Source of the DNA: Eledone cirrhosa
Taxonomy: Eukaryota
Length of the DNA: 64,000 nt
Direction: 5' to 3'
NCBI GenBank assembly: GCA_964016885.1
Contig: OZ024740.1
Location: 6,324,001 to 6,388,000, forward strand
How positions within the stretch are numbered: the stretch's first letter is position 1; the number at the start of each line of letters is the position of its first letter. Position numbers and translations under genes: made by a program. Below, one piece after another: positions 1-34,204 of the stretch. The notes under the pieces were generated by a model. It made no database searches. It was not told the origin of the DNA and saw only the letters and a list, made by a program, of their open reading frames with translations.

Positions 1-3000
1 GTTATTTCACAAGATATCTTCTATTTTGTCCAGTTATTTCACAAGATATATTCTATTTTGTCCAGTTATTTCACAAGATATATTCTATTTTGTCCAGTTA
101 TTTCACAAGATATCTTCTATTTTGACCAGTTATTTCACAAGATATCTTCTATTTTGACCAGTCATTCCACAAGATATCTTCTACTTTGTCCAGTTATTTC
201 ACAAGATATCTTCTATTTTGACCAGTTATTTCACAAGATATATTCTATTTTGTCCAGTCATTTCACAGGATATATTCTACTTTGTCCAGTTATTTCACAA
301 GATATCTTCTACATTACCCAATCATTTCACAAGATATATTCTACTTTATCCAAACATTTCACTAGATATCTTTTATTTTGTCGAGTTATTTTACAAGATA
401 TCTTCTACTTTGTACAATCATTTCACAAGATATATTCTATATTGTCCAGTTATTTCACAAGATATCTTCTACTTGTCCAGTTATTTCACAAGATATATTC
501 TATTTTGTCCAGTCATTCCACAAGATATCTTCTACTTTGTCCAGTTATTTCACAAGATATCTTCTATTTTCCCAGTTATTTCACAAGATATCTTCTCTTT
601 TGTCCAGTTATTTCACAAGATATCTTCTTTTTTGTCCAATCATTTCACAAGATATATTCTATTTTGTCCAGTTATTTCACAAGATATCTTCTATTTTCCC
701 AGTTATTTCACAAGATATTTTCTACTTTGTCCAGTTATTTCACAAGATATCTTCTATTTTCCCAGTTATTTGACAAGATATCTTCTACTTTATCCAATCA
801 TTTCATTAGATATCTTTTATTTTGTCGAGTTATTTTACAAGATATCTTCTACTTTGTACAATCATTTCACAAGATATATTCTATTTTGTCCAGTTATTTC
901 ACAAAATAACTTCTATTTTGTCCAGTTATTTCACAAGATATATTCTATTTTGTCAGTTATTTCACAACATATATTCTACTTTGTCCAGTTATTTCACAAG
1001 AAATATTCTATGTTGTCCAGTTATTTCACAAGATATATTCTATTTTATCCAGTTATTTCACAACATATATTCTATCTTGTCCAGTTACTTCACAAGATAT
1101 ATTCTAGTTTGTCCAGTTATATCACAAGATATATTCTATTTTGTCCAGTTATTACCCAAGATATGTTCTATTTTGTCCAGTTATTTCACAAGATATATTC
1201 TATTTTGTCCAGTTATTTCACAAGATATATTCTATTTTGTCAGTTATTTCACAACATATATTCTACTTTGTCCAGTTATTTCACAAGATATCCCCTACTT
1301 GTCCAGTTATTTCACAAGATATATTCTATTTTGTCCAGTCATTGCACAAGATATCTTCTAATCTGTCCAGTTATTTCACAAGTTATCTTCTATTTTGACC
1401 AGTTATTTCACAAGATATATTCTATTTTGTGCAGTCATTTCACAGGATATATTCTACTTTGTCCAGTTATTTCACAAGATATCTTCTACATTACCCAATC
1501 ATTTCACAAGATATATTCTACTTTATCCAAACATTTCACTAGATATCTTTTATTTTGTCGAGTTATTTTACAAGATATCTTCTACTTTGTACAATCATTT
1601 CACAAGATTTATTCTATATTGTCCAGTTATTTCACAAGATATCTTCTACTTGTCCAGTTATTTCACAAGATATATTCTATTTTGTCCAGTCATTCCACAA
1701 GATATCTTCTACTTTGTCCAGTTATTTCACAAGATATCTTCTATTTTCCCAGTTATTTCACAAGATATCTTCTCTTTTGTCCAGTTATTTCACAAGATAT
1801 CTTCTTTTTTGTCCAATCATTTCACAAGATATATTCTATTTTGTCCAGTTATTTCACAAGATATCTTCGATATTGTCCAGTCATTTCGCAAGATATCTTC
1901 TACTTTGTCTTGTTATTTCACAAGATGTCTACTACTTTACCCAATCATTTCACTAGATATCTTTCATTTTGTCCAGTTATTTTACAAGATATCTTCTACT
2001 TTGTACAATCATTTCACAACATATATTCTATTTTGTCCAGTTATTTCACATGATATCTTCTACTTTGTCCTGTTATTTCACAAGATATATTCTTTTTTGT
2101 CCAGTTATTTCACAAGATATCACCTACTCGTCCAGTTATTTCACAAGATATATTCTATTTTGTCCAGTCATTCCACAAGATATCTTCTACTCTGTCCAGT
2201 TATTTCACAAGATATCTTCTACTTTGTCCAGTTGTTTCACAAGATATCACATACTCGTCCAGTTATTTCACAAGATATATTCTATTTTATCCAGTCATTT
2301 CACAAGATATATTCTATTTTGTACAGTTATTTCACAACATATATTGTAATTTGTCCAGTTACTTCACAAGATATATTCTATTTTGTCCAGTCATTCCACA
2401 AGATATATTCTTTTTTGTCCAGTTATTTCACAAGATATCACCTACTCGTCCAGTTATTTCACAAGATATATTCTATTTTATCCAGTCATTTCACAAGATA
2501 TATTCTATTTTGTACAGTTATTTCACAACATATATTGTAATTTGTCCAGTTACTTCACAAGATATATTCTATTTCGTCCAGTTATTTCACAAATATATTC
2601 TACTTTGTCCAGTCATTTCACAAGATATATTCTATTTTATACAGTTATTACACAAGATATCTTCTACATTGTCCAGTTTTTTCACAAGATATCTTCTACT
2701 TTGTCCAATCATTTCACAAGATATATTCTATTTTGTTCAGTCATTTCATAAGATATATTCTATTTTATCCAGTTATTTCACAAGATATCTTCTACATTGA
2801 CCAGTTATGTCACAACATATATTCTAATTTGTCTGGTTATTTCACAAGATATATTCTATTTTGTCCAGTTATTTCACAAGATATCTTCTATTTTGTCATG
2901 TTATTTCACAAGATATCTTCTATTTTGTCCAGTTATTTCACAAGATATCTTCTACTTTGTCCAGTTGTTTCACAAGATGTATTCTATTTTATCCAGTCAT

Positions 3001-6000
3001 TTCACAAGATATATTCTATTTTGTACAGTTATTTCACAACATATAATGTAATTTGTCCAGGTACTTCACAAGATATATTCTATTTTGTCCAGTTATTTCA
3101 CAAATATATTCTATTTTGTCCAGTTATTTCACAAGATATATTCTATTTTGTCAGTTATTTCACAACATATATTCTACTTTGTCCAGTTATTTCACAAGAT
3201 ATATTCTAGTTTGTCCAGTTATATCACAAGATATATTCTATTTTGTCCAGTTATTACCCAAGATATGTTCTATTTTGTCCAGTTATTTCACAAGATATAT
3301 TCTATTTTGTCCAGTTATTTCACAAGATATCTTCTATTTTGTCCAGTTATTTCACAAGATATCTTCTATTTTGTCCAGTTATTTCACAAGAAATATTCTA
3401 TTTTGTCAAGTTATTTCACAAGATATCTTCTATTTTGTCCAGTTATTTCACAAGATATATTCTATTTTGTCCAGTTATTTCACAAGATATATTCTATTTT
3501 GTCCAGTTATTTCACAAGATATCTTCTATTTTGACCAGTTATTTCACAAGATATCTTCTATTTTGACCAGTCATTCCACAAGATATCTTCTACTTTGTCC
3601 AGTTATTTCACAAGATATCTTCTATTTTGACCAGTTATTTCACAAGATATATTCTATTTTGTCCAGTCATTTCACAGGATATATTCTACTTTGTCCAGTT
3701 ATTTCACAAGATATCTTCTACATTACCCAATCATTTCACAAGATATATTCTACTTTATCCAAACATTTCACTAGATATCTTTTATTTTGTCGAGTTATTT
3801 TACAAGATATCTTCTACTTTGTACAATCATTTCACAAGATATATTCTATATTGTCCAGTTATTTCACAAGATATCTTCTACTTGTCCAGTTATTTCACAA
3901 GATATATTCTATTTTGTCCAGTCATTCCACAAGATATCTTCTACTTTGTCCAGTTATTTCACAAGATATCTTCTATTTTCCCAGTTATTTCACAAGATAT
4001 CTTCTCTTTTGTCCAGTTATTTCACAAGATATCTTCTTTTTTGTCCAATCATTTCACAAGATATATTCTATTTTGTCCAGTTATTTCACAAGATATCTTC
4101 GATATTGTCCAGTCATTTCGCAAGATATCTTCTACTTTGTCTTGTTATTTCACAAGATGTCTACTACTTTACCCAATCATTTCACTAGATATCTTTCATT
4201 TTGTCCAGTTATTTTACAAGATATCTTCTACTTTGTACAATCATTTCACAACATATATTCTATTTTGTCCAGTTATTTCACATGATATCTTCTACTTTGT
4301 CCTGTTATTTCACAAGATATATTCTTTTTTGTCCAGTTATTTCACAAGATATCACCTACTCGTCCAGTTATTTCACAAGATATATTCTATTTTGTCCAGT
4401 CATTCCACAAGATATCTTCTACTCTGTCCAGTTATTTCACAAGATATCTTCTACTTTGTCCAGTTGTTTCACAAGATATCACCTACTCGTCCAGTTATTT
4501 CACAAGATATATTATATTTTATCCAGTCATTTCACAAGATATATTCTATTTTGTACAGTTATTTCACAACATATATTGTAATTTGTCCAGTTACTTCACA
4601 AGATATATTCTATTTTGTCCAGTCATTCCACAAGATATATTCTTTTTTGTCCAGTTATTTCACAAGATATCACCTACTCGTCCAGTTATTTCACAAGATA
4701 TATTCTATTTTATCCAGTCATTTCACAAGATATATTCTATTTTGTACAGTTATTTCACAACATATATTGTAATTTGTCCAGTTACTTCACAAGATATATT
4801 CTATTTCGTCCAGTTATTTCACAAATATATTCTACTTTGTCCAGTCATTTCACAAGATATATTCTATTTTATACAGTTATTACACAAGATATCTTCTACA
4901 TTGTCCAGTTTTTTCACAAGATATCTTCTACTTTGTCCAATCATTTCACAAGATATATTCTATTTTAGCCAGTTATTTCACAAGATATATTCTATTTTGT
5001 CCAGTCATTCCACAAGATATCTTCTACTTTGTCCAGTTATTTCACAAGATATATTCTATTTTGTCAGTTATTTCACAACATATATTCTACTTTGTCCAGT
5101 TATTTCACAAGATATCCCCTACTTGTCCAGTTATTTCACAAGATATATTCTATTTTGTCCAGTCATTGCACAAGATATATTCTACTTTGTCCAGTTATTT
5201 CACAAGATATCTTCTACTTTACCCAATCATTTCACAAGATATATTCTATTTTGTTCAGTCATTTCATAAGATATATTCTATTTTATCCAGTTATTTCACA
5301 AGATATCTTCTACATTGACCAGTTATGTCACAACATATATTCTAATTTGTCTGGTTATTTCACAAGATATATTCTATTTTGTCCAGTTATTTCACAAGAT
5401 ATCTTCTATTTTGTCATGTTATTTCACAAGATATCTTCTATTTTGTCCAGTTATTTCACAAGATATCTTCTACTTTGTCCAGTTGTTTCACAAGATGTAT
5501 TCTATTTTATCCAGTCATTTCACAAGATATATTCTATTTTGTACAGTTATTTCACAACATATAATGTAATTTGTCCAGGTACTTCACAAGATATATTCTA
5601 TTTTGTCCAGTTATTTCACAAATATATTCTATTTTGTCCAGTTATTTCACAAGATATATTCTATTTTGTCAGTTATTTCACAACATATATTCTACTTTGT
5701 CCAGTTATTTCACAAGATATATTCTAGTTTGTCCAGTTATATCACAAGATATATTCTATTTTGTCCAGTTATTACCCAAGATATGTTCTATTTTGTCCAG
5801 TTATTTCACAAGATATATTCTATTTTGTCCAGTTATTTCACAAGATATCTTCTATTTTGTCCAGTTATTTCACAAGATATCTTCTATTTTGTCCAGTTAT
5901 TTCACAAGAAATATTCTATTTTGTCAAGTTATTTCACAAGATATCTTCTATTTTGTCCAGTTATTTCACAAGATATATTCTATTTTGTCCAGTTATTTCA

Positions 6001-9000
6001 CAAGATATATTCTATTTTGTCCAGTTATTTCACAAGATATCTTCTATTTTGACCAGTTATTTCACAAGATATCTTCTATTTTGACCAGTCATTCCACAAG
6101 ATATCTTCTACTTTGTCCAGTTATTTCACAAGATATCTTCTATTTTCCCAGTTATTTCACAAGATATCTTCTCTTTTGTCCAGTTATTTCACAAGATATC
6201 TTCTTTTTTGTCCAATCATTTCACAAGATATATTCTATTTTGTCCAGTTATTTCACAAGATATCTTCGATATTGTCCAGTCATTTCGCAAGATATCTTCT
6301 ACTTTGTCTTGTTATTTCACAAGATGTCTACTACTTTACCCAATCATTTCACTAGATATCTTTTATTTTGTCCAGTTATTTTACAAGATATCTTCTACTT
6401 TGTACAATCATTTCACAAGATATATTCTATTTTGTCCAGTTATTTCACATGATATCTTCTACTTTGTCCTGTTATTTCACAAGATATATTCTATTTTGTC
6501 CAGTTATTTCACAAGATATCTCCTACTCGTCCAGTTATTTCACAAGATATCTTCTACTTTGTCCAGTTATTTCACAAGATATCTTCTATTTTGTCGAGTT
6601 ATTTCACAAGATATCTTCTATTTTGTCCAGTTATTTCACAAGAAATATTCTATTTTGTCAAGTTATTTCACAAGATATCTTCTATTTTGTCCAGTTATTT
6701 CACAAGATATATTCTATTTTGTCCAGTTATTTCACAAGATATATTCTATTTTGTCCAGTTATTTCACAAGATATCTTCTATTTTGACCAGTTATTTCACA
6801 AGATATCTTCTATTTTGACCAGTCATTCCACAAGATATCTTCTACTTTGTCCAGTTATTTCACAAGATATCTTCTATTTTCCCAGTTATTTCACAAGATA
6901 TCTTCTATTTTGTCCAGTTATTTCACAAAATATGTTCTATTTTGTCCAGTTATTTCACAAGATATCTTCTACTTTGTCCAGTCATTTCACAAGATATATT
7001 CTACTTTGTCCAGTCATTTCACAAGATATATTCTATTTTGTTCAGTTATTTCACAAGATATATTCTACTTTGTCCAGCTACTTCTCAAGATATCTTCGTC
7101 ATTGTCCAGTTATTTCACAAGATATATTCTATTTTGTCCAGTTATTTCACAAGATATCTTCTATTTTGTCCAGTTATTTCACAAGATATATTCTATTTTG
7201 TCCAGTTATTTCACAAGATATCTTCTATTTTGTCCAATCATTTTACAGGATATCTTCTACTTTGTCTTGTTATTTCACAAGATATTTTCTACTTCGTCCA
7301 GTTATTTCACAACATATCTTCTATTTTGTCCAGTCATTTCACAAGATATATTCTATTTTGTCCAGTTATTTCACAAGATATTTTCTACTTTGTCCAGTTA
7401 TTTCACAAGATATCTTCTATTTTCCCAGTTATTTGACAAGATATCTTCTACTTTGTCCAGTCATTTCACAAGATATATTCTATTTTGTCCAGTTATTTCA
7501 CAAATATATTCTACTTTGTCCAGTCATTTCACAAGATATATTCTATTTTATACAGTTATTACACAAGATATCTTCTACATTGTCCAGTTTTTTCACAAGA
7601 TATCTTCTACTTTGTCCAATCATTTCACAAGATATATTCTATTTTAGCCAGTTATTTCACAAGATATCTTCTATTTTGTCCAGTTATTTCACAAGATATA
7701 TTCTATTTTGTCCAGTCATTCCACAAGATATCTTCTAATCTGTCCAGTTATTTCACAAGATATCTTCTATTTTGACCAGTTATTTCACAAGATATATTCT
7801 ATTTTGTCCAGTCATTTCACAAGATATATTCTACTTTGTCCAGTTAATTCACAAGATATCTTCTATTTCGTCCAGTCATTTCACAAGATATCTTCTACTT
7901 TGTCCAGTTATTTCACAAGATATCTTCTATTTTGACCAGTTATTTCACAAGATATCTTCTATTTTGTCCAGTTATTTCACAAGATATCTTCTACATTATC
8001 CAGTTATTTCGCAAGATATATTCTACTTTCTCCAGTTATTTCACAAGATTTCTTCTATTTTGTCCAGTTATTTGACAAGATATCTTCTACTTTGTCCAAT
8101 CATTTCACAAGATATATTCTACTTTGTCTAGTTATTTCACAAGATTTCTTCTATTTTGTCCAGTTATTTCCCAAGATATATTCTACTTTGTCCAGTCATT
8201 TCATAAGATATATTCTATTTTGTCCAATCATTTCACAAGATACCTTCTACATTGTCCAGTTATTCCACAAGATATCTTTTATTTTGTCCAGTTATTTCAC
8301 AAGATATCTTATACTTTGTCCAGTTATTCCACAAGATATCTTCTATTTTGTCCAGTTATTTCACAAGATATCTTCTACTTTGTCCAGTTATTCCACAAGA
8401 TATCTTCTATTTTGTCCAGTTATTTCACAAGATATCTTCTATTTTGTCCAGTTATTTCACAAGATATCTTCTACTTTGTCCAGTTATTCCACAAGATATC
8501 TTCTACTTTGTCCAGTTATTTCACAAGATATCTTCTATTTTGTCCAGTTATTACACACGATATCTTCTATTTTGTCCAGTTATTTCACAAGATATCTTCT
8601 ATTTTGTCCAGTCATTTCACAAGATATCTTCTACTTTGTTCAGTTATTCCACAAGATATCTTCTACTTTGTCCAGTTATTTCACAAGATATCTTCTCTTT
8701 TGACCAGTTATTTCACAAGATATCTTCTATTTTGTCCAGTTATTTCACTAGATATCTTCTACATTGTCCAGTTATTTCACAAGATATATTCTACTTTGTC
8801 CAGTTATTTCACAAGATATATTCTACTTCGTCCAGACATTTCACAAGATATCTTCTACTTTATCCAGTTATTTCACAAGATATCTTCTATTTCGTCCAGT
8901 CATTTCACAAGATATCTTCTACTTTGTCCAGACATTTCACAAGCTATCTTCTATTTTGTCCAGTTATTTCACAAGATAGCTTCTAATTTGTCCAGTTATT

Positions 9001-12000
9001 TCACAAGATATATTCTATTTTGTCCAGTTATTTCACAAGATATATTCTACTTTGTCCAGTTATTTCACAAGATATATTCTACTTTGTCCAGACATTTCAC
9101 AAGATATCTTCTAATTTGTCCAGTTATTTCACAAGATATCTTCTACTTTGTCCAGTTATTTCACAAGATATATTCTATTTTGTCCAGTCATTTCACAAGA
9201 TATATTCTATTTTCTCCAGTTAATTCACAAGATATCTCCTACTTGTCCAGTTATTTCACAAGATATATTCTACTTTGTCCAGTTATTCCACAAGATATCT
9301 TCTATTTCGTCCACTTATTTCACAAGATATCTTCTATTTTGTCCAGTTATTTCACAAGATATCTTCTATTTTGTCCAGTCATTTCACAAGATATCTTCTA
9401 CTTTGTTCAGTTATTCCACAAGATATCTTCTACTTTGTCCAGTTATTTCACAAGATATCTTCTCTTTTGACCAGTTATTTCACAAGATATCTTCTATTTT
9501 TTCCAGTTATTTCACTAGATATCTTCTACATTGTCCAGTTATTTCACAAGATATATTCTACTTTGTCCAGTTATTTCACAAGATATATTCTACTTCGTCC
9601 AGACATTTCACAAGATATCTTCTACTTTATCCAGTTATTTCACAAGATATCTTCTCTTTCGTCCAGTCATTTCACAAGATATCTTCTACTTTGTCCAGAC
9701 ATTTCACAAGCTATCTTCTATTTTGTCCAGTTATTTCACAAGATAGCTTCTAATTTGTCCAGTTATTTCACAAGATATATTCTATTTTGTCCAGTTATTT
9801 CACAAGATATATTCTACTTTGTCCAGTTATTTCACAAGATATATTCTACTTTGCCAGACATTTCACAAGATATCTTCTAATTTGTCCAGTTATTTCACAA
9901 GATATCTTCTACTTTGTCCAGTTATTCCACAAGATATCTTCTATTTTGTCCACTTATTTCACAAGATATCTTCTATTTTGTCCAGTTATTTCACAAGATA
10001 TCTTCTACTTTGTCCAGTTATTCCACAAGATATCTTCTATTTTGTCCAGTTATTTCACAAGATATCTTCTACTTTGTCCAGTTATTCCACAAGATATCTT
10101 CTATTTTGTCCAGTTATTTCACAAGATATCTTCTATTTTGTCCAGTTATTTCACAAGATATCTTCTACTTTGTCCAGTTATTCCACAAGATATCTTCTAT
10201 TTTGTCCAGTTATTTCACAAGATAGCTTCTACTTTGTTCAGACATTTCACAAGATATCTTCTACTTTGTCCAGTTATTTCACAAGATATATTCTACTTCG
10301 TCCAGACATTTCACAAGATATCTTCTATTTTGTCCAGTTATTTCACAAGATATCTTCTATTTCGTCCAGTCATTTCACAAGATATTTTCTACTTTGTCCA
10401 GTTATTTCACAAGATATCTTCTATTTTGACCAGTTATTTCACAAGATATCTTCTATTTTGTCCAGTTATTTCACAAGATATCTTCTACATTGTCCAGTTA
10501 TTTTACAAGATATATTCTACTTTCTCCAGTTATTTCACAAGATTTCTTCTATTTTGTCCAGTTATTTCCCAAGATATATTCTACTTCGTCCAGACATTTC
10601 ACAAGATATCTTCTATTTTGTCCAGTTATTTCACAAGATATCTTCTATTTCGTCCAGTCATTTCACAAGATATTTTCTACTTCGTCCAGTTATTTCACAA
10701 GATATCTTCTATTTTGACCAGTTATTTCACAAGATATCTTCTATTTTGTCCAGTTATTTCACAAGATATCTTCTACTTTGTCCAGTTATTCCACAAGATA
10801 TCTTCTATTTTGTCCAGGTATTTCACAAGATATCTACTACTTTGTCCAGTTATTCCACAAGATATCTTCTATTTTGTCCAGTTATTTCACAAGATATCTT
10901 CTACTTTGTCCAGTTATTCCACAAGATATCTTCTATTTTGTCCAGTTATTTCACAAGATATCTTCTATTTTGTCCAGTTATTTCACAAGATATCTTCTAC
11001 TTTGTCCAGTTATTCCACAAGATATCTTCTATTTTGTCCAGTTATTTCACAAGATATCTTCTACTTTGTCCAGTTATTTCACAAGATATATTCTACTTCG
11101 TCCAGTTATTTCACAAGATTTCTTCTATTTTGTCCAGTTATTTCCCAAGATATATTCTACTTTGTCCAGTCATTTCACAAGATATATTCTATTTTGTCCA
11201 GTTATTTCACAAGATATCTTCTACTTTGTCCAGTTATTCCACAAGATATCTTCTATTTTGTCCAGTTATTTCACAAGATATCTTCTATTTTGTCCATTTA
11301 TTTCACAAGATATCTTCTATTTCGTCCAGTCATTTCACAAGATATCTTCTACTTTGTCCAGTTATTTCACAAGATATCTTCTATTTTGACCAGTTATTTC
11401 ACAAGATATCTTCTATTTTGTCCAGTTATGTGACAAGATATCTTCTACATTATCCAGTTATTTCGCAAGATATATTCTACTTTCTCCAGTTATTTCACAA
11501 GATTTCTTCTATTTTGTCCAGTTATTTGACAAGATATCTTCTACTTTGTCCAATCATTTCACAAGATATATTCTACTTTGTCTAGTTATTTCACAAGATT
11601 TCTTCTATTTTGTCCAGTTATTTCCCAAGATATATTCTACTTTGTCCAGTCATTTCATAAGATATATTCTATTTTGTCCAATCATTTCACAAGATATCTT
11701 CTACATTGTCCAGTTATTCCACAAGATATCTTCTATTTTGTCCAGTTATTTCACAAGATATCTTCTACTTTGTCCAGTTATTCCACAAGATATCTTCTAT
11801 TTTGTCCAGTTATTTCACAAGATATCTTCTACTTTGTCTAGTTATTCCACAAGATATCTTCTATTTTGTCCAGTTATTTCACAAGATATCTTCTATTTTG
11901 TCCAGTCATTTCACAAGATATCTTCTACTTTGTTCAGTTATTCCACAAGATATCTTCTACTTTGTCCAGTTATTTCACAAGATATCTTCTCTTTTGACCA

Positions 12001-18000: not shown

Positions 18001-21000
18001 TATTTTGTCCAGTTATTTCACAAGATATCTTCTACTTTGTCCAGTTATTCCACAAGATATCTTCTATTTTGTCCAGTTATTTCACAAGATATCTTCTACT
18101 TTGTCCAGTTATTCCACAAGATATCTTCTATTTTGTCCAGTTATTTCACAAGATATCTTCTATTTTGTCCAGTTATTTCACAAGATATCTTCTACTTTGT
18201 CCAGTTATTCCACAAGATATCTTCTATTTTGTCCAGTTATTTCACAAGATATCTTCTACTTTGTTCAGACATTTCACAAGATATCTTCTACTTTGTCCAG
18301 TTATTTCACAAGATATATTCTACTTCGTCCAGACATTTCACAAGATATCTTCTATTTTGTCCAGTTATTTCACAAGATATCTTCTACTTTGTTCAGTTAT
18401 TCCACAAGATATCTTCTACTTTGTCCAGTTATTTCACAAGATATCTTCTCTTTTGACCAGTTATTTCACAAGATATCTTCTATTTTGTCCAGTTATTTCA
18501 CTAGATATCTTCTACATTGTCCAGTTATTTCACAAGATATATTCTACTTTGTCCAGTTATTTCACAAGATATATTCTACTTCGTCCAGACATTTCACAAG
18601 ATATCTTCTACTTTATCCAGTTATTTCACAAGATATCTTCTATTTCGTCCAGTCATTTCACAAGATATCTTCTACTTTGTCCAGACATTTCACAAGCTAT
18701 CTTCTATTTTGTCCAGTTATTTCACAAGATAGCTTCTAATTTGTCCAGTTATTTCACAAGATATATTCTATTTTGTCCAGTTATTTCACAAGATATATTC
18801 TACTTTGTCCAGTTATTTCACAAGATATATTCTACTTTGTCCAGACATTTCACAAGATATCTTCTAATTTGTCCAGTTATTTCACAAGATATCTTCTACT
18901 TTGTCCAGTTATTTCACAAGATATATTCTATTTTGTCCAGTCATTTCACAAGATATATTCTATTTTCTCCAGTTAATTCACAAGATATCTCCTACTTGTC
19001 CAGTCATTTCACAAGATATCTTCTACTTTGTTCAGTTATTCCACAAGATATCTTCTACTTTGTCCAGTTATTTCACAAGATATCTTCTCTTTTGACCAGT
19101 TATTTCACAAGATATCTTCTATTTTGTCCAGTTATTTCACTAGATATCTTCTACATTGTCCAGTTATTTCACAAGATATATTCTACTTTGTCCAGTTATT
19201 TCACAAGATATATTCTACTTCGTCCAGACATTTCACAAGATATCTTCTACTTTATCCAGTTATTTCACAAGATATCTTCTCTTTCGTCCAGTCATTTCAC
19301 AAGATATCTTCTACTTTGTCCAGACATTTCACAAGCTATCTTCTATTTTGTCCAGTTATTTCACAAGATAGCTTCTAATTTGTCCAGTTATTTCACAAGA
19401 TATATTCTAGTTTGTCCAGTTATTTCACAAGATATATTCTACTTTGTCCAGTTATTTCACAAGATATATTCTACTTTGTCCAGACATTTCACAAGATATC
19501 TTCTAATTTGTCCAGTTATTTCACAAGATATCTTCTACTTTGTCCAGTTATTCCACAAGATATCTTCTATTTTGTCCACTTATTTCACAAGATATCTTCT
19601 ATTTTGTCCAGTTATTTCACAAGATATCTTCTACTTTGTCCAGTTATTCCACAAGATATCTTCTATTTTGTCCAGTTATTTCACAAGATATCTTCTACTT
19701 TGTCCAGTTATTCCACAAGATATCTTCTATTTTGTCCAGTTATTTCACAAGATATCTTCTATTTTGTCCAGTTATTTCACAAGATATCTTCTACTTTGTC
19801 CAGTTATTCCACAAGATATCTTCTTATTTGTCCAGTTATTTCACAAGATAGCTTCTACTTTGTTCAGACATTTCACAAGATATCTTCTACTTTGTCCAGT
19901 TATTTCACAAGATATATTCTACTTCGTCCAGACATTTCACAAGATATCTTCTATTTTGTCCAGTTATTTCACAAGATATCTTCTATTTCGTCCAGTCATT
20001 TCACAAGATATTTTCTACTTTGTCCAGTTATTTCACAAGATATCTTCTATTTTGACCAGTTATTTCACAAGATATCTTCTATTTTGTCCAGTTATTTCAC
20101 AAGATATCTTCTACATTGTCCAGTTATTTTACAAGATATATTCTACTTTCTCCAGTTATTTCACAAGATTTCTTCTATTTTGTCCAGTTATTTCCCAAGA
20201 TATATTCTACTTCGTCCAGACATTTCACAAGATATCTTCTATTTTGTCCAGTTATTTCACAAGATATCTTCTATTTCGTCCAGTCATTTCACAAGATATT
20301 TTCTACTTCGTCCAGTTATTTCACAAGATATCTTCTATTTTGACCAGTTATTTCACAAGATATCTTCTATTTTGTCCAGTTATTTCACAAGATATCTTCT
20401 ACTTTGTCCAGTTATTCCACAAGATATCTTCTATTTTGTCCAGTTATTTCACAAGATATCTTCTACTTTGTCCAGTTATTCCACAAGATATCTTCTATTT
20501 TGTCCAGTTATTTCACAAGATATCTTCTACTTTGTCCAGTTATTCCACAAGATATCTTCTATTTTGTCCAGTTATTTCACAAGATATCTTCTATTTTGTC
20601 CAGTTATTTCACAAGATATCTTCTACTTTGTCCAGTTATTCCACAAGATATCTTCTATTTTGTCCAGTTATTTCACAAGATATCTTCTACTTTGTCCAGT
20701 TATTTCACAAGATATATTCTACTTCGTCCAGTTATTTCACAAGATTTCTTCTATTTTGTCCAGTTATTTCCCAAGATATATTCTACTTTGTCCAGTCATT
20801 TCACAAGATATATTCTATTTTGTCCAGTTATTTCACAAGATATCTTCTACTTTGTCCAGTTATTCCACAAGATATCTTCTATTTTGTCCAGTTATTTCAC
20901 AAGATATCTTCTATTTTGTCCATTTATTTCACAAGATATCTTCTATTTCGTCCAGTCATTTCACAAGATATCTTCTACTTTGTCCAGTTATTTCACAAGA

Positions 21001-24000
21001 TATCTTCTATTTTGACCAGTTATTTCACAAGATATCTTCTATTTTGTCCAGTTATGTGACAAGATATCTTCTACATTATCCAGTTATTTCGCAAGATATA
21101 TTCTACTTTCTCCAGTTATTTCACAAGATTTCTTCTATTTTGTCCAGTTATTTGACAAGATATCTTCTACTTTGTCCAATCATTTCACAAGATATATTCT
21201 ACTTTGTCTAGTTATTTCACAAGATTTCTTCTATTTTCTCCAGTTATTTCCCAAGATATATTCTACTTTGTCCAGTCATTTCATAAGATATATTCTATTT
21301 TGTCCAATCATTTCACAAGATATCTTCTACATTGTCCAGTTATTCCACAAGATATCTTCTATTTTGTCCAGTTATTTCACAAGATATCTTCTACTTTGTC
21401 CAGTTATTCCACAAGATATCTTCTATTTTGTCCAGTTATTTCACAAGATATCTTCTACTTTGTCTAGTTATTCCACAAGATATCTTCTATTTTGTCCAGT
21501 TATTTCACAAGATATCTTCTATTTTGTCCAGTCATTTCACAAGATATCTTCTACTTTGTTCAGTTATTCCACAAGATATCTTCTACTTTGTCCAGTTATT
21601 TCACAAGATATCTTCTCTTTTGACCAGTTATTTCACAAGATATCTTCTAATTTGTCCAGTTATTTCACAAGATATATTCTATTTTGTCCAGTTATTTCAC
21701 AAGATATATTCTACTTTGTCCAGTTATTTCACAAGATATATTCTACTTTGTCCAGACATTTCACAAGATATCTTCTAATTTGTCCAGTTATTTCACAAGA
21801 TATCTTCTACTTTGTCCAGTTATTTCACAAGATATATTCTATTTTGTCCAGTCATTTTACAAGATATATTCTATTTTCTCCAGTTAATTCACAAGATATC
21901 TCCTACTTGTCCAGTTATTTCACAAGATATATTCTACTTTGTCCAGTTATTCCACAAGATATCTTCTATTTTGTCCACTTATTTCACAAGATATCTTCTA
22001 TTTTGTCCAGTTATTTCACAAGATATCTTCTACTTTGTCCAGTTATTCCACAAGATATCTTCTATTTTGTCCAGTTATTTCACAAGATATCTTCTACTTT
22101 GTCCAGTTATTCCACAAGATATCTTCTATTTTGTCCAGTTATTTCACAAGATATCTTCTATTTTGTCCAGTTATTTCACAAGATATCTTCTATTTTGTCC
22201 AGTCATTTCACAAGATATCTTCTACTTTGTTCAGTTATTCCACAAGATATCTTCTACTTTGTCCATATATTTCACAAGATATCTTCTCTTTTGACCAGTT
22301 ATTTCACTAGATATCTTCTACATTGTCCAGTTATTTCACAAGATATATTCTACTTTGTCCAGTTATTTCACAAGATATATTCTACTTCGTCCAGACATTT
22401 CACAAGATATCTTCTCTTTTGACCAGTTATTTCACTAGATATCTTCTACATTGTCCAGTTATTTCCCAAGATATATTCTACTTTGTCCAGTCATTTCATA
22501 AGATATATTCTATTTTGTCCAATCATTTCACAAGATATCTTCTACATTGTCCAGTTATTCCACAAGATATCTTCTATTTTGTCCAGTTATTTCACAAGAT
22601 ATCTTCTACTTTGTCCAGTTATTCCACAAGATATATTCTACTTTGTCCAGACATTTCACAAGATATCTTCTAATTTGTCCAGTTATTTCACAAGATATAT
22701 TCTACTTCGTCCAGGCATTTCACAAGATATCTTCTACTTTATCCAGTTATTTCACAAGATATCTTCTCTTTCGTCCAGTCATTTCACAAGATATCTTCTA
22801 CTTTGTCCAGACATTTCACAAGCTATCTTCTATTTTGTCCAGTTATTTCACAAGATAGCTTCTAATTTGTCCAGTTATTTCACAAGATATATTCTATTTT
22901 GTCCAGTTATTTCACAAGATATATTCTACTTTGTCCAGTTATTTCACAAGATATATTCTACTTTGTCCAGACATTTCACAAGATATCTTCTAATTTGTCC
23001 AGTTATTTCACAAGATATCTTCTACTTTGTCCAGTTATTTCACAAGATATATTCTATTTTGTCCAGTCATTTCACAAGATATATTCTATTTTCTCCAGTT
23101 AATTCACAAGATATCTCCTACTTGTCCAGTTATTTCACAAGATATCTTCTACTTTGTTCAGACATTTCACAAGATATCTTCTACTTTGTCCAGTTATTTC
23201 ACAAGATATATTCTACTTCGTCCAGACATTTCACAAGATATCTTCTATTTTGTCCAGTTATTTCACAAGATATCTTCTATTTCGTCCAGTCATTTCACAA
23301 GATATTTTCTACTTTGTCCAGTTATTTCACAAGATATCTTCTATTTTGACCAGTTATTTCACAAGATATCTTCTATTTTGTCCAGTTATTTTACAAGATA
23401 TATTCTACTTTCTCCAGTTATTTCACAAGATTTCTTCTATTTTGTCCAGTTATTTCCCAAGATATATTCTGCTTCGTCCAGACATTTCACAAGATATCTT
23501 CTATTTTGTCCAGTTATTTCACAAGATATCTTCTATTTCGTCCAGTCATTTCACAAGATATTTTCTACTTTGTCCAGTTATTTCACAAGATATCTTCTAT
23601 TTTGACCAGTTATTTCACAAGATATCTTCTATTTTGTCCAGTTATTTCACAAGATATCTTCTACTTTGTCCAATCATTTCACATGATATATTCTACTTTG
23701 TCCAGTTATTTCACAAGATTTCTTCTATTTTGTCCAGTTATTTCCCAAGATATATTCTACTTTGTCCAGTCATTTCACAAGATATATTCTATTTTGTCCA
23801 ATCATTTCACAAGATATCTTCTACATTGTCCAGTTATTCCACAAGATATCTTCTATTTTGTCCAGTTATTTCACAAGATATCTTCTACTTTGTCCAGTTA
23901 TTCCACAAGATATCTTCTATTTTGTCCAGTTATTTCACAAGATATCTTCTACTTTGTCCAGTTATTCCACAAGATATCTTCTATTTTGTCCAGTTATTTC

Positions 24001-27000
24001 ACAAGATATCTTCTACTTTGTCCAGTTATTCCACAAGATATCTTCTATTTTGTCCAGTTATTTCACAAGATATCTTCTATTTTGTCCAGTTATTTCCCAA
24101 GATATCTTCTACTTTGTCCAGTTATTCCACAAGATATCTTCTATTTTGTCCAGTTATTTCACAAGATATCTTCTACTTTGTCCAGTTATTTCACAAGATA
24201 TATTCTACTTCGTCCAGTTATTTCACAAGATTTCTTCTATTTTGTCCAGTTATTTCCCAAGATATATTCTACTTTGTCCAGTCATTTCACAAGATATATT
24301 CTATTTTGTCCAGTTATTTCACAAGATATCTTCTACTTTGTCCAGTTATTCCACAAGATATCTTCTACTTTGTCCAGTTATTTCACAAGATATCTTCTAT
24401 TTTGACCAGTTATTTCACAAGATATCTTCGATATTGTCCAGTCATTTCGCAAGATATCTTCTACTTTGTCTTGTTATTTCACAAGATGTCTACTACTTTA
24501 CCCAATCATTTCACTAGATATCTTCTATTTTGTCCAGTTATTTCACAAGATATCTTATACATTATCCAGTTATTTCGCAAGATATATTCTACTTTCTCCA
24601 GTTATTTCACAAGATTTCTTCTATTTTGTCCAGTTATTTGAGAAGATATCTTCTACTTTGTCCAATCATTTCACAAGATATATTCTACTTTGTCTAGTTA
24701 TTTCACAAGATTTCTTCTATTTTGTCCAGTTATTTCCCAAGATATATTCTACTTTGTCCAGTCATTTCATAAGATATATTCTATTTTGTCCAATCATTTC
24801 ACAAGATATCTTCTACATTGCCCAGTTATTCCACAAGATATCTTCTATTTTGTCCAGTTATTTCACAAGATATCTTCTATTTTGTCCAGTTATTTCACAA
24901 GATATCTTCTACTTTGTCCAGTTATTCCACAAGATATCTTCTACTTTGTCCAGTTATTTCACAAGATATCTTCTATTTTGTCCAGTTATTTCACAAGATA
25001 TCTTCTATTTTGTCCAGTTATTTCACAAGATATCTTCTATTTTGTCCAGTCATTTCACAAGATATCTTCTACTTTGTTCAGTTATTCCACAAGATATCTT
25101 CTACTTTGTCCAGTTATTTCACAAGATATCTTCTCTTTTGACCAGTTATTTCACAAGATATCTTCTATTTTGTCCAGTTATTTCATTAGATATCTTCTAC
25201 ATTGTCCAGTTATTTCAGAAGATATATTCTACTTTGTCCAGTTATTTCACAAGATATATTCTACTTCGTCCAGACATTTCACAAGATATCTTCTACTTTA
25301 TCCAGTTATTTCACAAGATATCTTCTATTTCGTCCAGTCATTTCACAAGATATCTTCTACTTTGTCCAGACATTTCACAAGCTATCTTCTATTTTGTCCA
25401 GTTATTTCACAAGATAGCTTCTAATTTGTCCAGTTATTTCACAAGATATATTCTATTTTGTCCAGTTATTTCACAAGATATATTCTACTTTGTCCAGTTA
25501 TTTCACAAGATATATTCTACTTTGTCCAGACATTTCACAAGATATCTTCTAATTTGTCCAGTTATTTCACAAGATATCTTCTACTTTGTCCAGTTATTTC
25601 ACAAGATATATTCTATTTTGTCCAGTCATTTCACAAGATATATTCTATTTTCTCCAGTTAATTCACAAGATATCTCCTACTTGTCCAGTTATTTCACAAG
25701 ATATATTCTACTTTGTCCAGTTATTCCACAAGATATCTTCTATTTTGTCCACTTATTTCACAAGATATCTTCTATTTTGTCCAGTTATTTCACAAGATAT
25801 CTTCTACTTTGTCCAGTTATTCCACAAGATATCCTCTATTTTGTCCAGTTATTTCACAAGATATCTTCTACTTTGTCCAGTTATTCCACAAGATATCTTC
25901 TATTTTGTCCAGTTATTTCACAAGATATCTTCTATTTTGTCCAGTTATTTCACAAGATATCTTCTATTTTGTCCAGTCATTTCACAAGATATCTTCTACT
26001 TTGTTCAGTTATTCCACAAGATATCTTCTACTTTGTCCAGTTATTTCACAAGATATCTTCTCTTTTGACCAGTTATTTCACAAGATATCTTCTATTTTGT
26101 CCAGTTATTTCACTAGATATCTTCTACATTGTCCAGTTATTTCACAAGATATATTCTACTTTGTCCAGTTATTTCACAAGATATATTCTACTTCGTCCAG
26201 ACATTTCACAAGATATCTTCTACTTTATCCAGTTATTTCACAAGATATCTTCTCTTTCGTCCAGTCATTTCACAAGATATCTTCTACTTTGTCCAGACAT
26301 TTCACAAGCTATCTTCTATTTTGTCCAGTTATTTCACAAGATAGCTTCTAATTTGTCCAGTTATTTCACAAGATATATTCTATTTTGTCCAGTTATTTCA
26401 CAAGATATATTCTACTTTGTCCAGTTATTTCAGAAGATATATTCTACTTTGTCCAGACATTTCACAAGATATCTTCTAATTTGTCCAGTTATTTCACAAG
26501 ATATCTTCTACTTTGTCCAGTTATTTCACAAGATATATTCTATTTTGTCCAGTCATTTCACAAGATATATTCTATTTTCTCCAGTTAATTCACAAGATAT
26601 CTCCTACTTGTCCAGTTATTTCACAAGATATATTCTACTTTGTCCAGTTATTCCACAAGATATCTTCTATTTTGTCCACTTATTTCACAAGATATCTTCT
26701 ATTTTGTCCAGTTATTTCACAAGATATCTTCTACTTTGTCCAGTTATTCCACAAGATATCTTCTATTTTGTCCAGTTATTTCACAAGATATCTTCTACTT
26801 TGTCCAGTTATTCCACAAGATATCTTCTATTTTGTCCAGTTATTTCACAAGATATATTCTACTTCGTCCAGACATTTCACAAGATATCTTCTATTTTGTC
26901 CAGTTATTTCACAAGATATCTTCTATTTCGTCCAGTCATTTCACAAGATATTTTCTACTTTGTCCAGTTATTTCACAAGATATCTTCTATTTTGACCAGT

Positions 27001-28840
27001 TATTTCACAAGATATCTTCTATTTTGTCCAGTTATTTCACAAGATATCTTCTACTTTGTCCAATCATTTCACAAGATATATTCTACTTTGTCCAGTTATT
27101 TCTCAAGATTTCTTCTATTTTGTCCAGTTATTTCCCAAGATATATTCTACTTTGTCCAGTCATTTCACAAGACATATTCTATTTTGTCCAATCATTTCAC
27201 AAGATATCTTCTACATTGTCCAGTTATTTCACAAGATATCTTCTATTTTGTCCAGTTATTTCACAAGATATCTTCTACTTTGTCCAGTTATTCCACAAGA
27301 TATCTTCTATTTTGTCCAGTTATTTCACAAGATATCTTCTACTTTGTCCAGTTATTCCACAAGATATCTTCTATTTTGTCCAGTTATTTCACAAGATATC
27401 TTCTACTTTGTCCAGTTATTCCACAAGATATCTTCTATTTTGTCCAGTTATTTCACAAGATATCTTCTACTTTGTCCAGTTATTCCACAAGATATCTTCT
27501 ATTTTGTCCAGTTATTTCACAAGATATCTTCTACTTTGTCCAGACATTTCACAAGATATCTTCTACTTTGTCCAGTTATTTCACAAGATATATTCTACTT
27601 CGTCCAGACATTTCACAAGATATCTTCTATTTTGTCCAGTTATTTCACAAGATATCTTCTATTTCGTCCAGTCATTTCACAAGATATCTTCTACTTTGTC
27701 CAGTTATTTCACAAGATATCTTCTATTTTGACCAGTTATTTCACAAGATATCTTCTATTTTGTCCAGTTATTTCACAAGATATCTTCTACATTGTCCAGT
27801 TATTTCACAAGATATATTCTACTTTCTCCAGTTATTTCACAAGATTTCTTCTATTTTGTCCAGTTATTTGACAAGATATCTTTTACTTTGTCCAATCATT
27901 TCACAAGATATATTCTACTTTGTCTAGTTATTTCACAAGATTTCTTCTATTTTGTCCAGTTATTTCCCAAGATATATTCTACTTTGTCCAGTCATTTCAC
28001 AAGATATATTCTATTTTGTCCAATCATTTCACAAGATATCTTCTACATTGTCCAGTTATTCCACAAGATATCTTCTATTTTGTCCAGTTATTTCACAAGA
28101 TATCTTCTATTTTGTCCAGTTATTTCACAAGATATCTTCTACTTTGTCCAGTTATTCCACAAGATATCTTCTACTTTGTCCAGTTATTTCACAAGATATC
28201 TTCTATTTTGTCCAGTTATTTCACAAGATATCTTCTATTTTGTCCAGTTATTTCACAAGATATCTTCTATTTTGTCCAGTCATTTCACAAGATATCTTCT
28301 ACTTTGTTCAGTTATTCCACAAGATATCTTCTACTTTGTCCAGTTATTTCACAAGATATCTTCTCTTTTGACCAGTTATTTCACAAGATATCTTCTATTT
28401 TGTCCAGTTATTTCACTAGATATCTTCTACATTGTCCAGTTATTTCACAAGATATATTCTACTTTCCCCAGTTATTTCACAAGATTTCTTCTATTTTGTC
28501 CAGTTATTTCACAAGATATCTTCTACTTTGTCCAGTTGTTTCACAAGATTTCTTCTATTCTGTCCAGTTATTTCACAAGATATCTTCTACTTTGTCCAAT
28601 CATTTCACAAGATATATTCTACCTTGTCCAGTTATTTCACAAGATTTCTTCTATTTTGTCCAGTTATTTCCCAAGATATATTCTACTTTGTCCAGTCATT
28701 ACACAAGATATATTCTATTTTGTCCAGTTATTTCACAAGATATATTCTATTATGTCCAGTAATTTCACAAGATTTATTCTATTTTGTCCAGTTATTTCAC
28801 AAGATTTCTTCTATTTTGTGCAGTAACTTCACAAGATATA
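1..28840. repeat. 32-bp tandem satellite, consensus GTTATTTCACAAGATATCTTCTATTTTGTCCA, ~900 monomers, one orientation, continues past window start
   Basis: Continuous 32-bp periodicity read directly. Recurrent variants include ATATATT/ATATCTT, CTACTTT/CTATTTT, GTCATT, GACATT and TTCCAC. Internal palindrome AAGATATCTT. Array ends at ...ttcacaagatatatataaaa near 28840. Confidence 0.99.
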
Positions 28841-28999
28841 TATAAAAAAATAAGACTTCAGTTGCATTTTCGATTTCATCCCTTTTTCTTTATACTTCCA
28901 CTCGTGTAGGACACCTCGGTTATTTTTCATTTTGTAAAAAAAACCTCACTTTCTAATATATATATATATATATAGATGTGTGTGCGTCTCAGATTTTAG

Positions 29000-29310
29000 A
29001 ATAGGTGCACCATATCTCTACATGCTGGAAGAGGTAACTAAAAGGGTTGACCCCAGGAAGGGTAATACCATAAAATATTGCTTCAAAGCACCCCATCAAA
29101 CCCATATCAGCACGGAAAAGTGGACATAAAAACGATGATGACCATCATCATCGTTTAATGCCCAATTTCCACACTTAGGTTAGGCAGGTTGTCGCATTAA
29201 GAGGCAATTCAGGTTTCGTGACAAGGTCTTGCTTATATAGTTCTGTATTTTGGTTGTTTCTATGGCTGTCTGCTCTTCCTAATACCAACCACATTACAGT
29301 GTGGAAAATG
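29000..29310. mobile_element. Two RTE-type 3'-end fragments arranged tail-to-tail
   Basis: + copy ends ggaaaagtggacataaaacgatgatga (~29140). An inverted copy follows at once: catcatcatcgtttaatgcccaatttcc...tttctatggctgtctgctcttcctaataccaaccacattacag. This resembles the 3' end of the RTE at 38452-38620. Confidence 0.65.
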
Positions 29311-29799
29311 GTGGTATATATGCCAAGTTTCTACAGTTTCTATCTAACAACCCAAGTAGAGACATGGGGAGTAGAATCAGCAGATAATCTTGAATTAATC
29401 ACACCAACTTTATACAACAAAAGAGGCAAGAAAAATGAATTAAAAGAAAGTTGATTGAATTTACACAAATGTTATGCTTGTGCACTTTTATATACATCTC
29501 TAGGACACAATTTCATATAATCGCTAGATTTTCTGCATAACATTAAATTTCTGCAAGAAGCCACAAATATATGGCAATGGCTTTTTTTGTTGTATTTTTT
29601 CGTTTTGTATTTTATTTTCCATCGTTTCTTGTCTCTAAACACTGACTGAAGATATCTGAGAGGAGCTTGGAGAGCCAACAGACCTGGCAGTGTATACTGC
29701 TTTAACTTGTAGACATTTTTCTTTGAAACAGAAGAGAAGCAAATGAAGAGTTTGTTTGCCAATAGATGTCTTCTGAAGCCAAATCACATTATTAAGGGC

Positions 29800-30030
29800 C
29801 CAACACACACATATATACACATACACACAAATATATACACACACATATATACACTCGTGCACACACACACACACTACACACATGTACACACAAATGTATG
29901 CACACACATATACACACTCAAGCACACACACACACATATACACACTCAAGCACACACACACACATATACACGCAAACATGTACACCTCCCCACCACCACA
30001 CACTAACATGTGCACCTCCCCACCACAACA
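29800..30030. repeat. Degenerate (CA)/(TACA) microsatellite
   Basis: Direct reading. Confidence 0.9.
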
Positions 30031-30099
30031 AACAAATAATACTGGTTAATAAAATGGTATCAGGTATATTTCTTTTTAGAAATATTATTTAAATATATT

Positions 30100-30525
30100 G
30101 AGTGAGGTGGTGAGGGTGAGGGTGGGGGTGTGGTGGTAGTGGTGAGGTCATTGTTTGGTGGAGGTGGTGGTGGTGAGGTCATGGCTGGGTGGAGGTGGTG
30201 GTGAGGTCATGGCTGGGTGAAGGTGGTGGTGGTGAGGCCATAGTTGGGTGGAGGTGGTGGTGGTGGAGGTGGTGGAGGTGGAGGTGGTGGTGGTGGAGGT
30301 GAGGTCATGGCTTGGTGGAGGTAGTGGTGGAGGTGGTGGTGGTGGTGGAGGTGGTGGTGGTGGAGGTGAGGTCATGGTTGGATGGTGGTGGTGGAGGTGG
30401 AGGTGGGTGGTGGCTGGGTGGTGGTGGGTGGTGGAGATGGAGGTGAGGTCATGACTGAGTAGTGGTGGAGGTGGTGGTGAGGTCATGGGTGGGTGGTGGT
30501 GGAGGTGGAGGTGGTCATGGTTAGA
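30100..30525. repeat. G-rich (GGT/GGA)n-derived minisatellite with recurring GGTGAGGTCATGG units
   Basis: Direct reading. The poly-G and poly-P ORFs here are by-products of the repeat. Confidence 0.9.
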
Positions 30526-30689
30526 GAGAGAAGGAGAGTAGCTTAAAACTAATTATGGACACTTTTGAAAAAACTTGCATGGCCCTTATTAATTTGCATA
30601 TCACTACATTCGTTAGTGACACATACATACTGATAACTAAAGTACTGAGAAAGTATGTTTAAGTATACAAACACACACAACATAGCAAT

Positions 30690-30807
<118 letters not shown>

Positions 30808-30970
30808 GCACAAACAATCACAGCAACACACACACATATCCAGATACACACACATACACATACAAACAAGCACATCAACACACACACAAAAGCACATTAA
30901 CACATACACAATCAAGCACACACACATATATTTATAAAATGCTTTTTATGATATTTTATTTTACTTTCAG

Positions 30971-31176: not shown

Positions 31177-31249
31177 GTAAGTACAAATTTATGCCAAGTT
31201 AAAATCAACAGTGACAAATGAGGTCTATCAAGAAAGGATCTGACCTTAA

Positions 31250-34148: not shown

Positions 34149-34153
34149 TCTCC

Positions 34154-34204
<51 letters not shown>

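Follow-up and report, generated by a model that had tools for sequence, protein, structure and literature searches.

A single-locus 32-nt minisatellite with a 3′ splice-site-like unit in a giant KIF25 intron of Eledone cirrhosa

The window, a 64,000-nt stretch of the Eledone cirrhosa genome, covers the 3′ part of a giant intron of the kinesin gene KIF25 and the exons that follow it (Table 1). All KIF25 exons found are intact and match octopus KIF25 at 69–98%, and the gene is 1.06 Mb long here. Four unrelated tandem arrays with units of 28, 15, 77, and 32 nt account for 398,208 nt (87%) of the giant intron; the 28-, 15-, and 77-nt arrays span 46, 120, and 153 kb, respectively, and the 32-nt array is only the last 17%. 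Neighboring KIF25 introns hold further arrays, including one with a 58-nt unit.

Table 1. Positions of the array, the surrounding KIF25 features and the predicted cryptic exon. Coordinates are window positions unless prefixed G000:C1; a slash marks the splice junction.
Feature	Position	Strand	Basis or remark
KIF25 phase-2 intron, 456,741 nt	G000:C1:5898230-6354970; 3′ part at 1..30970	+	donor CAG/GTTAGT
Whole 32-nt array, 78,951 nt	-50112..28839 (G000:C1:6273889-6352839)	+	
Right-hand 28.8 kb of the array	1..28839	+	repeat calls, monomer phasing
Candidate cryptic (poison) exon, 210 nt, in frame, stop 7 codons in; predicted	28824..29033	+	last monomer acceptor (7.4 bits, AG ends 28823) and donor 29034
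Donor-like site GAG/GTAACTA, 5.4 bits, 58th percentile of real donors	29031..29040	+	only good donor within reach of array acceptors
True acceptor of the intron, ends TTTCAG, 4.7 bits	30941..30970	+	2,131 nt past array end
KIF25 coding exon, motor-domain HEHSSRSH motif	30971..31176	+	donor GTAAGT at 31177
Next KIF25 exon, LQLVDLAGSEC motif	41845..41964	+	acceptor call with low margin

The repeat call within the window is a tandem array of period 32 nt with 902.5 copies. Its left end lies 50,112 nt outside the window, and the full array holds ~2,475 copies, ~2,060 of which end in YAG; the figure of ~900 potential acceptors given in the initial annotation was therefore too low. The array occupies the sense strand of KIF25, the strand of the kinesin exons as had been stated, and it sits in an intron, inside the transcription unit. 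Non-array, microsatellite-rich DNA separates its 3′ end from the exon. Three runs from a single sample that match window positions 30932–32300 consist of contigs over intronic repeats, contain no exon joint, and are uninformative about splicing. Copies of the unit match at 87–88%, with 307 distinct full-length variants. In the 3.0-Gb genome, all 679 exact matches of the unit and all 2,164 near matches with up to three mismatches fall inside the array; the 32-nt satellite family is a single locus.

The description of each monomer as a 3′ splice-site-like module was borne out. The unit contains a tract with 13 of 15 pyrimidines, a TTCAC with its A at -25, an internal AG at -22/-21, and a terminal CAG followed by T; CAG ends 809 of the 902 phased window monomers, and YAG ends 816. 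The spacing is canonical as claimed, with human branch points reported to peak at -24 and AGs less than 12–15 nt from the branch point described as open to bypass (PMC2991248). The unit is also free of stop codons in all frames, which was set aside as a signal; 8.7% of shuffles are stop-free as well.

To score the monomer, an acceptor matrix was trained on 72 homology-called junctions from seven genes of the E. cirrhosa genome, with enhancers and silencers ignored. The 72 were what remained of 111 junction calls at a margin of at least 8 and a score of at least 60, after three more, conflicting or exonic, had been dropped by hand. Across five model settings the monomer scored at the 43rd–68th percentile of real acceptors, and it stood out from shuffled units (P 0.013–0.032) and from random intronic 32-mers made tandem (P 0.004–0.014). 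Of the outcomes that the initial annotation had named as refuting, neither scores equal to those of shuffles nor a position outside the transcription unit was seen. Acceptor likeness is modestly beyond chance for one unit. It is not beyond chance once the many arrays of the genome are taken into account: per unit and strand, an equal score arises by chance at a rate of 0.4–1.4% and the lower quartile of real acceptors is reached at ~3.5%, the same on both strands. Within the array, 989 AGs score at least as high as the true acceptor of the intron, and sites at the lower quartile occur at 22.7/kb compared with 1.3/kb in ordinary introns (~18-fold); these acceptor-like sites number 1,789 on the sense strand and 0 on the antisense strand. 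Some details of the unit are uncommon among real acceptors, because the T after the AG is the rarest base at that position (7 of 72) and only 5 of 72 have a second AG within 20 nt upstream. The proposed branch point stood only in part. TTCAC does fit a loose yUnAy at -25, with no purine before the A, but this match says little because 46% of random intron windows also match, as do 47 of the 72 real acceptors at -40 to -15, and TTCAC itself is found in that interval in 0 of the 72.

No acceptor likeness was detected on either strand of the 28-, 15-, and 77-nt arrays. Further arrays were compared in a panel of 39 records from 60 sampled stretches, with low-complexity units dropped; some arrays were sampled twice, so the 78 strand tests of the panel are not all independent. 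A 75-nt array in another place scores higher as an acceptor than the 32-nt unit (7.7 bits), and no exon-like continuation was found at its 3′ edge. Four other KIF25 arrays (69-, 117-, 310-, and 466-nt units) reach the lower quartile in the sense direction and none clearly does so on the antisense strand, where one 33-nt array is partly acceptor-like; this bias is not significant, and three of the four have long units.

The monomer has no usable donor. Of its two GTs, one scores -10.5 bits and the other -2.9 bits, compared with a lower quartile of 2.15 bits and a median of 4.8 bits for real donors, and only 6 of the 4,372 GTs in the array reach that quartile and none the median. The monomer therefore contains no AG/GT ratchet point. 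Its junction consensus is CAG/TT, and just 15 of ~2,474 monomers read YAG/GT; the donors regenerated by these 15 variants reach at most 2.3 bits, none has GTRAG, and 11 have acceptor scores of 7.2–9.5. Conservation within the array was compared across 2,225 full-length monomers. G(-1) is identical in 88.9%, and the median position in 95.9%; ranked from the bottom of the 32 positions, G(-1) is 4th, the branch A 11th, and A(-2) 20th. Within this set, neither the AG nor the branch A was better conserved than other positions, and there is no sign of selection for the acceptor signal.

We consider it probable that the array is a single-locus minisatellite that grew locally in the giant KIF25 intron, that its acceptor look is due to chance, and that the spliceosome passes over it for want of a donor. 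A short intronic sequence would have been tandemly amplified in place by unequal exchange or slippage, an origin suggested by long duplications within the array (e.g., of 120, 69, and 40 units), and the resemblance of the unit to a 3′ splice site most likely arose by chance. Exon definition across a 457-kb intron would call for a short exon with an acceptor on one side and a donor on the other; the true exon would provide both, with its own acceptor followed by GTAAGT 206 nt later, and the monomers inside the array would not. Because no donor follows them, the monomer acceptors are likely ignored, and from the sequence we infer that they are skipped. A function of the acceptor signal is not supported, and the array as a whole probably has no selected function. 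Unused pseudo splice sites are reported to exceed real ones by an order of magnitude in human HPRT (PMC3640928), and the amphioxus (lancelet) repeats known as mirages, which carry splice sites, reportedly leave splicing undisturbed (PMC3087553; PMC3902484). Several observations sit less comfortably with a chance resemblance. The unit is a good acceptor: the many array AGs counted above equal or exceed the score of the true acceptor, and sites at the lower quartile are far denser than in ordinary introns; the other acceptor-like KIF25 arrays lean to the sense strand, although not significantly; and AG-ending monomers are more frequent in the array's 3′ third (about 93%, up from about 81%). In three of the four scoring schemes used, the unit is also nearer to the next junction of its own gene than to the other 71, and 195 nt beyond the array there is a good donor.

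The nearness to the next junction bears on the suggestion in the initial annotation that the satellite arose by amplification of an intron 3′ end, an origin that the sequence weakly suggests. The unit would then be a mirage or exon stutter of old date that has since diverged, a ~31-nt copy across the KIF25 acceptor and exon start (30970/30971), which is compatible with no function; we regard this as unlikely, if the most credible of the alternatives. The source would later have come to lie 2.1 kb away through microsatellite-rich DNA, with the original AG lost and the present CAG new, which we likewise hold to be rather unlikely. A local alignment across the junction gives 20 matches in 24 columns with three gaps, and three scoring schemes place this junction first of 72, whereas the remaining one places it third. 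An equal score is found in 0.3–2.2% of 18,438 background tiles and 1.7–9.4% of shuffled units (P 0.003–0.09), and the z of 3.0 of this match is reached by 66 of 3,888 array-strand × junction pairs (1.7%). The likeness is faint, however, and was spotted by eye following a lead. The best junction alignment leaves the real AG without a counterpart in the monomer, and a BLASTn screen for exon copies was negative, with a best score in the array of 21 bits among the matches listed versus 29 bits in shuffled intron. Published mirage units are described as 81–100% alike and as covering the junction (PMC3087553), and the present array stops 2,131 nt from the exon. Unrelated places match the unit better than the junction does (scores of 37 and 35 versus 23), among them a 42-nt repeat family whose copy at positions 34679–34853 ties at 23. 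A search of 64,480 tiles covering both strands of ~1.6 Mb of non-array DNA, where those scores of 37 and 35 were the best, gave no convincing dispersed source of the unit.

Functional roles for the acceptor-like sites appear improbable. The transcribed array might, as an acceptor-side counterpart of chicken LL2R, load U2AF/SF1 and pyrimidine-tract proteins at ~2,000 sites per transcript and so slow or tune KIF25 splicing as a local sink or as the seed of a condensate. The ~18-fold, sense-only excess of sites is in keeping with such a role, as is the report that snRNPs are recruited by LL2R transcripts, which have predicted donors in excess, and not by repeats without splice sites (10.64898/2026.03.19.712899). 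We give this little credence: the AG and branch A are no better conserved than other positions, the family is a single locus with larger, signal-free arrays beside it, LL2R acts via donors in its own transcription unit, and binding by itself would not prove function. More doubtful still is a cassette exon with a stop codon, bounded by the last monomers and the donor at 29034, that would send part of the KIF25 mRNA to nonsense-mediated decay. Besides the predicted exon in Table 1, a start at 28792 would give 242 nt with a 5.9-bit acceptor, and both readings are predicted to hit a stop. So strong a pairing of acceptor and donor occurs just once in 114 kb of ordinary intron, and a donor as good in 13 of 423 ordinary 250-nt intron windows. 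The find is post hoc, however, the donor has no G at +5, and a non-array acceptor (4.7 bits, 28909) pairs with the same donor, so the array would not be needed. A composite scheme, in which ~2,000 acceptor-only U2AF/SF1 sites serve as a sink or condensate, the donor at 29034 completes a poison exon, and array length tunes KIF25 output, seems to us about as improbable as the sink by itself. The stepwise splicing raised in the initial annotation is not supported. The great length of the 457-kb intron would suit recursive removal with the array as a series of ratchet points, and the 15 YAG/GT monomers with their 11 high acceptor scores could be candidates, but real ratchet points are described as a juxtaposed acceptor and donor with an AG/GT core and as needing a downstream cryptic-exon donor (PMC8605326). 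The AG/TT consensus, the weak donors of the 15 variants, the lack of GTRAG, and the confinement of the array to the end of the intron make this extremely improbable.

On comparison with known systems, the array is best read as likely a locally expanded intronic minisatellite like the "sequence stuttering" (intron stuttering) described by Hron et al. in chicken dot-chromosome genes (PMC12954441). As in chicken, the KIF25 intron holds imperfect tandem units of tens of bases that are private to one intron, with several unrelated clusters per intron and intact exons in a repeat-rich part of the karyotype (PMC12954441); the arrays are strictly local and cross no exon. Unlike chicken stuttering, the KIF25 arrays span 46–153 kb with thousands of copies at a cephalopod macrochromosome end, compared with reported chicken exon-stutter spans of up to 23.6 kb and 1–44 copies (PMC12954441). 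Amphioxus mirage minisatellites and chicken exon stuttering share with the array intronic sense-strand repeats that carry splice-site-like signals upstream of an intact exon (PMC3087553; PMC3902484; PMC12954441), but mirages are recognizable copies of the adjacent junction, whereas the 32-nt unit is faintly alike, BLASTn-negative, and 2.1 kb from the exon. The chicken LL2R lumpy loops resemble it as a transcribed tandem array in which predicted splice sites are in one-sided excess (10.64898/2026.03.19.712899). In LL2R, as described, the excess is of donors, the transcription unit is its own, and factor recruitment has been shown, whereas the KIF25 array has acceptors only and lies in the intron of a coding gene. 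Intron satellites of the Drosophila Y loops are simple satellites. The Y-loop genes kl-3 and kl-5 likewise exceed 1 Mb through introns that are mostly tandem repeat (PMC6508621; PMC11207136), but they are on the Y chromosome and belong to a demonstrated testis program (PMC11207136). Recursive-splicing ratchet points are likewise acceptor-like and lie far inside very long introns (PMC8605326), and the KIF25 array differs in having no juxtaposed donor, no added conservation of the signal within the array, and no downstream cryptic-exon donor inside the array. No report of satellite- or minisatellite-filled long introns was found among the octopus and cephalopod papers listed, judged by titles and abstract starts.

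A 1.06-Mb KIF25 in which private minisatellites make up 87% of a 457-kb intron presents a pattern that had been described as bird-specific stuttering. The locus also offers a natural test, with ~1,000 donorless sites at least as strong as the true acceptor placed upstream of it and three signal-free control arrays in the same transcript; RNA data could show whether exon definition alone silences the array acceptors. As it stands, the 32-nt array is an ordinary product of a region in which private tandem arrays fill introns. Wholly tandem-repeat 10-kb stretches made up 16 of 40 sampled overall, with 11 of 20 in the first 16 Mb of C1 compared with 0 of 10 in chromosome interiors, which indicates that private tandem arrays are the local norm at the C1 end.

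The 32-nt tandem array lies inside a single large intron of the kinesin gene KIF25, on its coding strand, as the initial annotation had proposed. Eleven KIF25 exons could be aligned with octopus KIF25, and at least one exon was not found in the homology alignment across the gene. The exon after the array shares 84% identity with octopus KIF25 in the portion that matched, and its acceptor (window position 30970) is 2,131 nt from the array end. For the part of the array in the window, Tandem Repeats Finder gave a period of 32, 902.5 copies and 88% matches; 809 of the 902 phased monomers there end in CAG and 816 in YAG, and the layout first described for the unit was recovered: a run of pyrimidines, a TTCAC whose branch-like A stands at −25 when the final G is −1, and an AG inside the unit. 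Neighbouring stretches bring the whole array to ~2,475 copies in one orientation and without N, with YAG ends in 2,060 of 2,474 monomers, so the suggestion of ~900 tandem acceptor-like units stands for the sense strand and the intron but not for the count.

Locations of the array, its host gene and other features discussed (C1, contig OZ024740.1; window, C1:6,324,001-6,388,000; C2 and C27, further contigs; L-numbers, separately examined stretches)
Feature	Location	Strand or orientation	Length	Remark
KIF25 exons	C1:5,383,747-6,445,196	+	>1.06 Mb	
Intron hosting the 32-nt array	C1:5,898,230-6,354,970		456,741 nt	
32-nt array	window 1-28839; left end 50,112 nt left of window	sense	78,951 nt	
KIF25 exon after the array	window 30971-31176	+		
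28-nt array			46 kb	same intron as 32-nt array
15-nt array			120 kb	same intron as 32-nt array
77-nt array			153 kb	same intron as 32-nt array
58-nt array	window 46427-63808	blocks in alternating orientation		
69-nt array	window coordinates 74852-75441 (L022)	sense	590 nt	later KIF25 intron
42-nt unit	window 34679-34853			four copies
42-nt family	C1:16.0 Mb (L168), C2:3.0 Mb (L179)			fills whole 10-kb samples
75-nt array	C1:~1,487,400-1,520,800 (L189, L151, L191, L192)	minus	33 kb	single-locus
LINE reverse-transcriptase fragment	L006:8800-9885	minus		frameshifted; adjoins left edge of 32-nt array
Putative old LINE/DNA-transposon coding remnants	window 35350-36300, 37070-37430, 39100-41100			by eye; intron after the exon
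Muscle myosin heavy-chain gene	C27:17,955,001-18,065,000			

The array is single-locus: all 679 exact monomer matches in the 3.0-Gb genome fall inside it, as do all 2,164 matches with three mismatches or fewer. Blocks recur within it at distances of 120, 69, 40 and other numbers of units, and the AG-ending share rises from ~81% to ~93% in the 3′ third, which is more homogeneous. The four arrays of the 457-kb intron (units of 28, 15, 77 and 32 nt) together make up 87% of it. The following KIF25 introns hold arrays of 58, 47, 69, 68, 21/42 and 23 nt, and upstream 3 of 20 sampled intron stretches are entirely tandem array and many others in part. The 58-nt unit is similar to a dispersed repeat present elsewhere in the window. 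All three sense frames of the consensus 32-nt unit are free of stop codons, as is also the case for 8.7% of shuffles, and open stretches reach 1,423 codons in the window part of the array and beyond; AATAAA is absent from its sense strand and occurs 65 times on the antisense strand.

The acceptor-like array is a real feature. An acceptor matrix spanning −30 to +2 was trained on junctions in the clathrin heavy chain, myosin and KIF25 genes of the same genome, called through homology to proteins (72 kept of 111), with real-acceptor percentiles obtained by leave-one-out. The monomer scored 6.2 bits, higher than 68% of real acceptors, and only 19 of 4,667 ordinary intronic AGs were not outscored by it; the true acceptor of the intron scored 4.7 bits, a value equalled or exceeded by 989 array AGs (503 within the window). 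Across five model settings the monomer stood at the 43rd–68th percentile of real acceptors, with 1.3–3.2% of shuffled units scoring as high or higher, bearing out the acceptor-like reading with which we began; the corresponding share for random intronic 32-mers made tandem was 0.5–1.4%, and 0.4% in a separate calculation. The branch site contributes little, because yUnAy at −40 to −15 occurs in 46% of random windows (47/72 real acceptors) and TTCAC at that distance in none of the 72. A T at +1, as after the monomer AG, is found in 7/72 real acceptors, and 5/72 have another AG no more than 20 nt away; AGs so near a branch point are described as open to bypass (PMC2991248).

The array lacks donors. 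The two GTs of the monomer scored −10.5 and −2.9 bits, and six of 4,372 array GTs reached the lower quartile of real donors, none the median. Ratchet points are described as juxtaposed acceptor and donor with an AG/GT core (PMC8605326); the monomer junction is AG/TT, and YAG/GT occurs in only 15 variants with donor scores ≤2.3 bits. Stepwise splicing at the monomers, as had been suggested, is therefore not supported. There is also no sign of selective upkeep of the acceptor signal, since G(−1), the branch A and A(−2) rank 4th, 11th and 20th from the bottom in conservation among the 32 positions. Judged by sequence, a monomer can be paired with a donor only at the 3′ edge, where the last two good acceptors stand 210 and 242 nt before a 5.4-bit candidate at window position 29034; both predicted exons ending there meet a stop, and 13 of 423 ordinary 250-nt windows hold a donor as good. 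The chicken LL2R repeat, described as recruiting factors (10.64898/2026.03.19.712899), is a precedent for an array with splice sites of one kind. We regard it as highly improbable that the KIF25 array serves as a splicing-factor sink or carries a poison exon at its edge.

Two of 16 arrays in and after KIF25 were acceptor-dense on one strand, the 32-nt array and the 69-nt array (27 sense-strand acceptor-like sites per kb at the lower quartile). A second set of 39 array records reached the lower quartile in 6 of 78 strand tests, and a 75-nt unit in this set, at 7.7 bits, exceeded the 32-nt monomer. Tandem repeats occupied the whole of 16/40 sampled 10-kb stretches outside KIF25, a sample weighted towards chromosome ends (11/20 in the first 16 Mb of C1 versus 0/10 in chromosome interiors). 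Some acceptor-like arrays are thus expected by chance in this genome, because arrays are so common and each unit has a ~1% rate on either strand. Counting against pure chance, four other KIF25 arrays at the lower quartile are all on the sense strand (4 to 0, non-significant), and ordinary introns have no strand bias (144 versus 136 acceptor-like sites). The 75-nt unit comprises an ACTAAC branch site, a pyrimidine tract, CAG/G, 33 nt without a stop and CAG/GTAAAG, with 276 exact matches on one strand only; it reads as a tandem 33-nt ‘exon’ and 42-nt ‘intron’ carrying both splice signals, and its array is the better splice-signal array of the two.

An origin from an intron 3′ end, also proposed initially, is no more than weakly suggested. 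The unit could be a diverged mirage, that is, a tandem copy of KIF25's own next intron-exon junction. This junction aligns to the unit with 20 of 24 columns matching and the real AG in a gap, and three of four scoring schemes place it first among the 72 (tile P 0.003–0.022, shuffle P 0.017–0.094, pair P 0.017). However, in a BLASTn exon-copy screen modelled on PMC12954441 the array reached at best 21 bits among the matches listed, below shuffled controls; array and exon are not adjacent; and unrelated sequences, the 42-nt repeat in the next intron among them, match the unit as well or better. We consider such a copy unlikely. Like amphioxus mirages as described (PMC3087553, PMC3902484), the array would offer splice signals without use, but its unit is at most a candidate junction copy. 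The 42-nt unit is similar to the 32-nt monomer in inverse orientation.

Most likely, a short intron stretch was amplified in place and then enlarged by block duplications, and comparable amplification would have arisen independently many times within KIF25; the unit would by chance have been pyrimidine-rich with a CAG end on the sense strand. Across such long introns, splice sites are expected to pair across exons, so the splicing machinery would skip monomer acceptors that have no donor downstream and would splice the upstream donor to the true exon. We infer both this in-place origin and the splicing silence of the array. Pseudo splice sites are reported to far outnumber real ones (PMC3640928). 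The array resembles intron stuttering as described in chicken (PMC12954441) in the three features tested (imperfect units, strict locality, and unrelated clusters with intact exons), and Drosophila giant-intron genes, as described, are a precedent for the build of KIF25 (PMC6508621, PMC11207136).

At a separate locus, the muscle myosin heavy-chain gene, several exons are duplicated (two, three and two copies) and are probably mutually exclusive.
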